From positions 1 through 32,517 of the forward strand of contig JAVRCJ020000060.1 of NCBI GenBank assembly GCA_034530875.2: a stretch of 32,517 nt of DNA. Reading direction: 5' to 3'. This document shows positions 1 through 3,000 of the stretch, piece by piece. The position numbers were made by a program. The first letter of the stretch is position 1; the number at the start of each line of letters is the position of its first letter. The DNA comes from Nostoc sp. DedSLP01 (GTDB lineage Bacteria; Cyanobacteriota; Cyanobacteriia; Cyanobacteriales; Nostocaceae).

Positions 1-3000
1 ATGGAAGTAATGCACGAGCGTAACGCTCACAACTTCCCCTTAGATTTGGCTGCTGCTGATGTTGCTCCTGTTGCTCTGAGCGCTCCTGCTATCAATGGCT
101 AATTAGCGATAGCGTCAAGTAAAATCGAAAGCGCTCTCCGCAAGGGGGGCGCTTTTTAGTTTAGCTAGCTCTGGGCGATCGCTATGTAGGTTTTGAAAAT
201 AAGAGTTCTATATAATAACGTCTACTTTTTAAGACAGCAGCCTCTCAACTAAGACCTGAATCTCTGGAAATGATAATGGTGTAATCGTTCCTTTGTCTAT
301 TATTTGTTCTGTGCTGTATTGTCCATTCTGGGGATTTTGGAACACAATTATATGCTTGGCAACCAAATTTAAAACCCAGTATTCAGGAATTTCAGCAGTG
401 GCATAGATAGCAGCTTTAATCGCTAAATCTTTTTTTAAACTTGTTTTGGCAACCTCTACAAGCCAAAAAATATCTTCAGCAGCAGGGTGACGATTATTGT
501 AGTTGGATTCTGGTAGCCGAACGATCGCAATATCAGGTGCGGGTTCAGAATTGGCTAGTGTGACTGGGCCATTGAAACGGATATCGGCTTTACCTATAAG
601 TAACTCTTCTAGGTATTTCACACCTCGTTTTACTGTACTGTAATGAATTGGAGTTTCTGGAGCTATTTCTACAATTTCCCCTGCTAACAACTCCACGCGG
701 CGATCGCGCAAAATCCCCGCTTCAATCATGCGATGATAGTCGTCTACAGACCATTTAGCTAGCGTTTTCATATCATTTGTGCGAGTCTGACTTAATTTTA
801 CGCTCTCTCAACGAGCGATCGCGCTTTACAGGTAACCCAAAATCCTTTAAGAATGTCATCATAGTTAAGGTAAAAACATTCTGGAGACAAAACCACGGTT
901 TACGCACGTCCTTTAGCACGGTTAATTGAGCAATTGCAACGCTTACCGGGAGTTGGGCCTAAATCTGCTCAACGACTGGCTTTGCATATTCTAAAGCGAC
1001 CAGAAGCAGAAGTAGAAGCTCTAGCACAAGCTTTAGTAGAAGCAAAAAAACAAATCGGCTTGTGTTCTGTCTGTTTTCACTTATCTGCTGAACCAGTTTG
1101 TGAAATTTGCCGCAATGTCAACCGTGATAACAATACTATCTGTGTAGTAGCAGATTCTCGTGATGTGATTGCCTTAGAAAAAACCCGCGAGTACAAAGGG
1201 AAGTATCACGTTTTGGGCGGAGTAATTTCTCCCATTGATGGAATTGGCCCGGAACAGTTGACTATTCAAGCTTTAGTACGTCGGGTAAGTAAGCAACAAC
1301 CCCAAGAAGTGATTTTGGCAATTAGTCCAAGTGTCGAAGGGGAGACAACAACACTTTATCTCGGTCAGCTGCTCAAGCCATTTACCAAAGTGACACGAAT
1401 CGCTTTTGGTTTACCTGTAGGTGGTGATTTAGAATACGCCGATGAAGTCACCCTCGCAAGAGCTTTGGAAGGGCGTCGGGAATTGGATTAGAGTTAAAGT
1501 CAAAAATCCACTAATTTTAATGGGGGCTGTACATGACATCCGATCGCAATACGTACTTCCGCCCCTGAATAACAGTAGCGCCCTCATGTGCTAGTTCGTG
1601 GACAAAACACAAAGCCATACCCGTTACTGGAACGACAGCTAAATTAGATGAATCTACGTGGTATTGTCGAAGATAAAAGCGGGTTTCCCCACCTTCAAAG
1701 CCTTCGTTGAGATAAATCATGAAAGTCAATAGACTTTCTTCACCGTTTGGTCTTCGATAAGCACCATCATGGTGAATTGCAAATTGCTGACCTGGATCGT
1801 AGCGATAGAAACGAAAACGCTCATTTAGCCCAACCGCGTGCCATCTGCCAATGGTTGTGGGGATATAATTTGACACGCGCTGCCATAGCTCGAAAGCACG
1901 ATCGCGATCGTCGAGGATAACCCGTTGATTATTGCGGATATCGGGACGGATTTCAAAACCTCGTATGGTAGTTATAGGAGCATCTGTATAGCCAATTTTC
2001 TCCGTTAAACTAATATACTCTGCACATTCCGCTGGCGAAAGAATGTTCTCCAAGGTGAAAATTTCGTTACGAAACAAATCTTTCTTAATCATGGTTGAGC
2101 CGATTGAGATTTAAGCCTTCTGATAGTGTATTGCTGATAACCAACGAGTTTAGGCTGAGGGTAGATTTTGATTTACCTTTCCACACCGGAGGAAATAGCT
2201 ATGCCAGGCGGTAATGCAAGCCATAAAGGTAGTTCTGATAAACCCAACGTTAATGCATCTGGTCAGATTAATGGTTCTGCTGCTGACAAATCAACTGACC
2301 CTGACGATGTTTTGCTAGAAGGTATCACTACAAATACAACTAGAACTCAAGAATTTGTTGATTTTCCTCCAGCTCTAGAACGGCCAAATCAAAAGCCGGA
2401 TACTGAAGATACCGAAAAAGATAGCCAGTAATATTACAATTTTTGCTGTATTAAATTTGCTATCGAAGCTAGTAGTTCGGCTGACTTTACTGGTTTGCCA
2501 ACGTGTTTTTCAAAGCCAGCTGCCAAAACTCGCTCGCGATCGCTTTCTCCCACATAAGCTGTCAGAGCGATCGCCCGAATTGCCCCACCCTGTTCTTTTG
2601 GCATTGCTCTGATCTGTTTTATCAAAGCATAGCCATCCATCTCAGGCATTGCTAAATCGCCGATCAATAAATCGGGTACATTCTTTGCTACAGCAGCTAA
2701 GGCTTCACTTGCCGATGCGACGGCAGTTATTACCGCCCCTTTGTGTTGTAGCAAGAAGGATACAAACTCCCTAGTATCAGCATCATCATCGACAACTAAT
2801 ACTCGTAGTCCGTCGAACAACGAAGAATCCAATTTTTCTGTAGCTTCGGATGTTTTGCCCGTTTTGCCCTTAGTCTCCTGCATCAAGGGTAATTTGACAG
2901 TAAAAATAGCTCCCCGGCCAATTCCCGGACTATCGGCGATCGCACTACCACCATGCAACTCTACCAGGTGGCGAACTATTGCTAATCCCAATCCCAACCC

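Follow-up and report, generated by a model that had tools for sequence, protein, structure and literature searches.

The window analysed here is the whole 32,517-nt stretch of contig JAVRCJ020000060.1 from Nostoc sp. DedSLP01, and recR lies near its beginning. In a profile search the recR product scored 277 bits against TIGR00615, above the cut-off of 162.55 for this equivalog, with the alignment covering profile positions 2 to 196 of 196 and position 2 falling on a GTT codon, and it matched PDB 3VDP with an E value of 1.9e-74. The RecR architecture is complete (helix 1 of the helix-hairpin-helix (HhH) region, Cys4 finger, Toprim and C-terminal region), and helix 1 needs a start upstream of the automatic call. 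The features of the locus, in window coordinates, are the following.

854..862, forward strand: probable extended −10 box of recR (TG-N-CATCAT), suggested by conservation
871..873, forward strand: in-frame TAA that closes the recR frame upstream (sequence)
883..886, forward strand: Shine-Dalgarno (SD) core GGAG, spaced 8 nt from ACG and 11 nt from GTT downstream
895..1491, forward strand: recR coding sequence (HhH, Cys4 zinc finger, Toprim, C-terminal region; TIGR00615, Pfam, PDB 3VDP)
895..897, forward strand: ACG, most likely the main start, giving a RecR of 198 aa (conservation, SD spacing, ORF)
898..900, forward strand: GTT, the published start in PCC 7120; it may serve as a second start (197 aa) or else simply encode Val-2
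901..903, forward strand: TAC, the conserved Tyr codon
907..939, forward strand: helix α1 of the RecR helix-hairpin-helix region, residues 5–15 counted from ACG (AlphaFold, PF21176)
934..936, forward strand: TTG chosen by the automatic 185-aa call and rejected here as the start (conservation, SD absence)

The open frame extends from 874 to the stop codon at 1489–1491, and the TTG at 934 is its first ATG, GTG or TTG. Because the TAA at 871–873 closes the frame, a canonical start further upstream is impossible, which bears out the proposal of the genome-wide survey's note that translation begins upstream of the TTG at a near-cognate codon. An assembly error is excluded, since ACG GTT TAY was found in all 17 same-genus loci with upstream DNA. 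The GGAG at 883–886 pairs with the 16S tail found in the same genome (−6.4 kcal/mol), and each of its four bases is kept in 32–36 of the 38 genera of the ACG type described below; among control ATG ORFs of this genome, only 127 of 1062 have GGAG within 25 nt upstream.

The probable −10 box is conserved as TGTCATCATAG in most loci of family f1, and its counterpart in other families is CGCTATGAT or TATCAT. A strict −10 pattern, which was picked post hoc, was present at the matching distance in 50 of 89 near-cognate genera versus 13 of 89 for a control stretch. If this box is used, the recR transcript would start near 868–871 and would probably have a leader of about 25 nt. A sigma-70 scan returned one site against 1.4 expected, the 854–862 box not being among the sites, and no terminator was detected. 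A putative endonuclease of the Uma2 family (229–771, reverse strand) is transcribed divergently to recR, and behind recR, in convergent orientation, lies a 2OG-Fe(II) oxygenase (1517–2092, reverse strand). Positions 1–102 hold the 3′ end of a gene that we take to be psbA-like from its C-terminal sequence, followed by a hairpin at 127–158; a Pfam search with the 33 aa of this end gave no match. When 1.5 kb on either side of recR was inspected, 16 of 57 loci, from six families, had a psbA-like 3′ end there, so this neighbourhood may be old. A second recR copy, 44% identical, is present in a same-genus genome with 6% contamination (G009:C88:3967-4539), probably on a foreign contig.

Helix 1 spans residues 5–15 of the AlphaFold model (pLDDT 88–93 for residues 1–20, mean 89.9), and the TTG at 934 specifies residue 14 counted from ACG. 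The TTG start thus cuts the first helix, as had been claimed, and in the model it removes most of helix α1. The 185-aa product has in its favor that the TTG is the first canonical codon of the frame and that many database entries have this length, the RecR entries of close relatives being 108, 169, 179, 185, 188 and 197–248 aa long. The residues upstream of the TTG argue against such a short RecR, as all 149 genera have Pro at codon +3 past the Tyr and Leu at +4 and +7. TTG occurs at the position of codon 934 in only 17 of the 102 genera with a near-cognate start, GGAG or GAGG precedes that position in none of the 102, and 47 of them lack any canonical codon within the first 16 codons. A T. 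tengcongensis RecR16-196 (PDB 3VE5) dimerizes and shows no RecO binding (PMC3510498); by chain alignment, this truncation begins four residues later than the TTG cut. Given that the TTG cuts helix 1 and that the homologous truncation loses RecO binding, the 185-aa protein is very unlikely to be the working form, and by analogy it should fail to bind RecO. A start at TTG 934 or at another internal codon is, in our judgment, already effectively refuted, and the widespread error in recR annotation is corrected accordingly.

To follow the distribution of the start, 327 genomes of the class were searched; recR was fetched from 178 of these, with new genera and weakly matching families favored, and 177 were usable. 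Two loci were excluded, one on a contig that begins inside the gene (L022) and one duplicate (L058). The main sample held one genome per genus (149 genera, 47 families), and the outgroups were 21 genomes of sister classes and 53 of other phyla. No ATG, GTG or TTG was found within five codons before the conserved Tyr/Phe in 102 of the 149 genera, and in 76 of the 149 there was none back to the stop. The survey had counted 21 and 11 loci, respectively, among 30, and its view that most cyanobacteria keep a near-cognate start at recR holds in the larger sample. The start was canonical in all 21 sister-class genomes and in 52 of the 53 genomes of other phyla, the remaining one having ATG at −6; a Gloeobacterales record has ATG and Sericytochromatia GTG. 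In 30 genomes with a non-canonical recR, recF had a canonical codon at its conserved N-terminus in 30 and recO in 29, indicating that the non-canonical start is specific to recR. The lone recO without a canonical codon (L321) has an ATG in another frame at that place, which hints at a slip by one base or a sequencing error. The near-cognate recR start is gene-specific and conserved, and we have hardly any doubt that it is real.

The codon itself turns over. With positions counted back from the conserved Tyr and classes assigned in a fixed order beginning with ACG at −2, the candidates in the 102 genera were ACG at −2 in 38, ATT or ATC at −1 in 24, CTG at −3 in 18, GTT or GTC at −1 in 16, ACG at −1 in 4 and ACG at −3 in 2. 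The pair ACG GTT is found in records of Aetokthonos, Scytonema, Anabaenopsis and Symploca, ACG GCT in two Chamaesiphon records, and ATT in Halomicronema, Phormidesmis and Waterburya. All 102 near-cognate loci carry a candidate codon at −1 to −3 as compared with 6, 25 and 29 at control positions, a count that is partly circular because the codon set was taken from the same data. Compared across genera, the identity of the start codon appears to turn over among ACG, GTT, ATT and CTG while the non-canonical state persists.

An SD sequence had been claimed for most loci. A GGAG or GAGG at working distance was indeed present in 85 of 89 near-cognate genera outside one family (f20), but the claim fails for f20, which uses CTG (1 of 13), and for canonical loci (8 of 47). 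By family majority, 29 families were near-cognate with an SD and 3 without, while 1 was canonical with an SD and 14 without; genus and family counts of this kind overstate the association because kin are not independent, and the family-level Fisher and Mann-Whitney p-values were set aside as kin-dependent. On the RecR tree, at least 11 switches between the canonical and the non-canonical label are required. Independent-pairs tests on this tree (FastTree, 156 rows) yielded 1–2 supported pairs and p = 1, with no power, and three of four within-family contrasts were in the predicted direction, with one tie. Outside five early-branching families, the canonical starts were TTG in 16, ATG in 7 and GTG in 6 of 29 genera, with an SD before 5 of the 29. 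Three loci (L057, L068, L069) have canonical GTG starts behind pyrimidine repeats containing ACCTCC, the anti-SD sequence itself.

The survey's statement that nothing on this start was in print is wrong: Pradhan et al. (bioRxiv 10.1101/2022.06.06.494920) describe for PCC 7120 recR a rare GTT start with a GGAG SD 11 bases upstream, report very low RecR protein levels, and cite Pandey et al. 2021 (Gene 788:145663) for the GTT start. The core fact, a near-cognate GTT start in one Nostoc strain, is therefore already published. A further statement, that the Swiss-Prot RecR of PCC 7120 is 12 aa longer than the call, could not be confirmed, as UniProt Q3MAW5 (Trichormus variabilis) is 185 aa and GenBank BAB76676.1 (PCC 7120) 108 aa long. 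Adding 89 codons to the 108 aa of BAB76676.1 gives 197 aa. Pandey and colleagues reportedly saw a 23-kDa RecR band and proposed a 267-base extension.

Whether ACG 895 or GTT 898 is used was approached through SD spacing, counted between the final G of the GGAGG register and the Tyr codon, with L216 and the weak-SD loci left out. In loci with ACG at −2, this spacing was 13 nt in 32 of 37 (range 12–14), which corresponds to 7 nt to ACG and 10 to GTT; where the only candidate is at −1, it was 8–12 nt in 38 of 41 and 13 nt in 3. When ACG stands ahead of GTT, the SD is thus displaced upstream by about one codon, which favors ACG over the published codon, but the three single-candidate loci that work at the long register leave room for GTT at 11 nt. 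Control ORFs of the same genome had a spacing of 8 nt in 20 cases and of 11 nt in 9, a preference of only some 2:1. ACG at −2 is shared by 38 genera of 15 families, among which four-fold sites have reached saturation (identity 0.30). Three loci (L216, L079, L080) retain ACG and have GCT in place of GTT, and in five genera of family f35 ACG is lost and CTG stands at −3 with the same SD register.

Initiation at GTT alone, with ACG a leader codon kept for some other reason, is what the preprint states for PCC 7120, and it draws on several facts: GTT is the commonest −1 codon (55 of 102), GTT or GTC is the evident candidate in 16 genera, and the native initiator tRNA of E. coli reads GUU weakly (10.64898/2025.12.21.695813). 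GTT is also fixed in 36 of the 38 ACG-type genera, where GTC, GTA and GTG are absent, while the top codon of seven conserved internal Val columns reaches 42–64%; such fixation, equal to that of ACG, counts against a pure Val-2 codon, which would probably not need it. On the other side are the more distant SD and the GCT replacements in ACG loci and the four genera in which the −1 codon is itself ACG. The main text of the preprint does not mention ACG, and its anticodon argument is unsupported by the present genome, in which none of 74 tRNAs has the anticodon AAC of a special initiator for GUU. Proteins of 197 and 198 aa, moreover, would not be told apart by gel size. For this lineage, the comparison among genomes tilts toward ACG without settling the choice. 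We consider it probable that ACG is the main or a shared start in the Nostoc sp. DedSLP01 lineage; the chance that it acts alone may be put at slightly under even, use of both codons is a less likely but serious possibility, and GTT as the sole start appears unlikely.

The neighborhood of recR differs between the start classes. A ybaB-like ORF within 300 nt upstream of recR was found in none of 97 near-cognate genera (five loci with less than 250 nt upstream were left out) and in 17 of 47 canonical genera, all belonging to the five early-branching families. Upstream ybaB-like ORFs were seen in 21 of 21 sister-class genomes and 45 of 52 genomes of other phyla, counts that are partly circular because the profile was seeded on outgroup sequences; PF02575 was confirmed for one ORF. 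In Nostoc sp. DedSLP01 itself, ybaB is on another contig than recR. The remaining 30 canonical genera also lack ybaB, so exit from the operon accompanies the near-cognate start and does not force it. The early branching of the five families was read from the RecR tree, a poorly supported tree of one gene, and from the same tree it would follow that operon exit and weak start arose in a particular order. In E. coli, dnaX-ybaB(orf12)-recR are translationally coupled, according to the introduction of bioRxiv 10.1101/2022.06.06.494920. The ybaB-recR order is the same in sister classes and in the early-branching cyanobacterial families, whereas the near-cognate recR loci are uncoupled from ybaB (0 of 97), which is taken as the ancestral partner of recR in the operon.

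These observations suggest the following mechanism. A stand-alone recR would be transcribed from its own promoter with a short leader, in which GGAG would pair with the 16S tail and position the near-cognate codon at the P site, so that translation would begin there, at low efficiency, with the ordinary initiator tRNA (anticodon CAU); with no AAC anticodon among the tRNAs, this tRNA must be the one that reads the codon. In this genome the codon would most likely be ACG 895, with GTT 898 as a possible second site, and other lineages would use GTT, ATT or ATC, CTG, or an ACG shifted by one codon in either direction. Selection would hold the start weak and cap RecR at a low level. The arrangement is seen only where recR no longer lies behind ybaB. 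Canonical lineages within the ybaB-less group mostly use TTG without an SD, and both states look like weak initiation. We regard this, selected low-efficiency initiation that caps RecR in a gene that left its operon, as the best explanation overall and give it a probability of roughly 0.6, judging from comparative sequence data. That the weak start is under selection at all is considerably more secure and very probable; low output would be the property selected.

If little RecR is needed, a weak start might instead merely be tolerated, the ATG having decayed once and then drifted among near-cognate codons. The label changes on the RecR tree, the failure to find a regulatory element, and the 47 of 149 genera that do well with canonical starts are in agreement with tolerance, and the last of these, together with the use of CTG without an SD in f20, counts against selection. 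However, ACG to ATG is a single transition. Among 199 distinct loci, 78 have ACG GTT, and the one-step canonical forms amount to ATG GTN in 2 and ACG GTG in 1; GGAG at the ACG register precedes none of these three, despite saturation of the four-fold sites. Since TTG without an SD predominates among the canonical starts of the same group, and recF and recO are canonical in the same genomes, drift seems an improbable account. A regulated switch, through leader structure, an upstream mini-ORF or coupling, appears more improbable still. A mini-ORF, ATG-TCA-TCA-TAG (853–864), is conserved in family f1, and ACG and GTT are both fixed beyond coding need; yet the ATG of the mini-ORF overlaps the probable −10 box, an upstream ORF that begins with ATG and ends at the start was present in only 6 of 102 loci, and folding energies showed no difference between start classes. 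Leaders compared across genera showed neither a conserved fold nor upstream-ORF coupling.

Editing of ACG to AUG in the mRNA has a precedent in plant plastids, where ACG is a substrate (PMC9845219), but GTT, ATT, ATC and CTG starts elsewhere are not explicable in this way. RNA contigs were obtained from 4 of 20 listed runs; three (X3, X12, X16) span the recR start at about 84–91% identity and one (X1) falls short. Over 895–900, the contigs of these three relatives, which may be DNA, showed no difference at position 896 among the 40 rows listed (82 more exist). We know of no C-to-U mRNA editing in cyanobacteria, and we give editing almost no credence.

Near-cognate decoding is generally sensitive to IF3. 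Extending this to recR, the start would be IF3-sensitive as well, but condition-dependent control through IF3 seems to us doubtful. Equally tentative is a fuller scenario. In it, ACG would be a genuine bacterial start codon that many cyanobacterial families retain, paired in tandem with a usable GUU; this combination of SD and weak codon would have arisen after uncoupling from ybaB and been kept by selection against excess RecR, RecFOR recombination would be sensitive to start-codon proofreading by IF3, and the published GTT would be one codon off.

Selected low-efficiency initiation at recR can be compared with known systems. The PCC 7120 study concerns the same gene, the same GGAG 11 bases before GTT, and the same reading as translational down-regulation; it differs in being confined to one strain, and its main text does not deal with ACG, ybaB or other cyanobacteria. 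S. aureus ccpN (AUA) and cvfC1 (AUU) have conserved near-cognate starts with a strong SD and gave about 10% of AUG output in reporters (PMC13009471). They resemble recR in combining a conserved near-cognate start with an SD. Their AUH codons were demonstrated by Ribo-Ret, whereas the recR starts are predicted from sequence; at recR, moreover, the codon may be ACG, GUU, CUG or AUY, identity and position turn over, and the SD is often just GGAG.

Class-wide conservation, the ACG assignment, codon turnover with SD tracking and the link to ybaB were not found in the open-access literature; the breadth of the phenomenon, the likely true codon and the link to the break-up of the ybaB-recR pair appear to be new. 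The main text of a Synechocystis TIS paper has no mention of recR, and a Synechocystis proteogenomic database allowed only ATG, GTG, TTG and CTG, so starts at ACG or GTT are easily missed. In public Synechocystis retapamulin data (10.64898/2025.12.20.695498), the 3′ ends of footprints fall 19 nt past the first base of the start codon. recR offers a natural series of interchangeable weak starts for testing selection on near-cognate initiation, and it could be used to ask directly whether homologous recombination in cyanobacteria is capped through RecR translation.

The infC gene, which encodes IF3, starts with AUU or AUA, and its near-cognate decoding is modulated by IF3 (PMC13009471). It shares a near-cognate start with recR, but autoregulation belongs only to infC: RecR is no translation factor, so feedback of that type does not apply. 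In each of 30 cyanobacterial genomes, a canonical codon lies 4–16 codons ahead of the conserved core of infC. This weakens a feedback model of the infC type further and led us to reject infC as a co-regulated near-cognate gene. The codon is mostly ATG or GTG at −8 to −10 (L340–L369), and three loci (L342, L354, L363) show ACG in place of the ATG of their relatives, with a GTG two codons further on. More than one infC match was obtained in 8 of the 30 genomes searched, and a second, weaker match in the present genome (G000:C23:117181-117630) could bear on start-codon proofreading.
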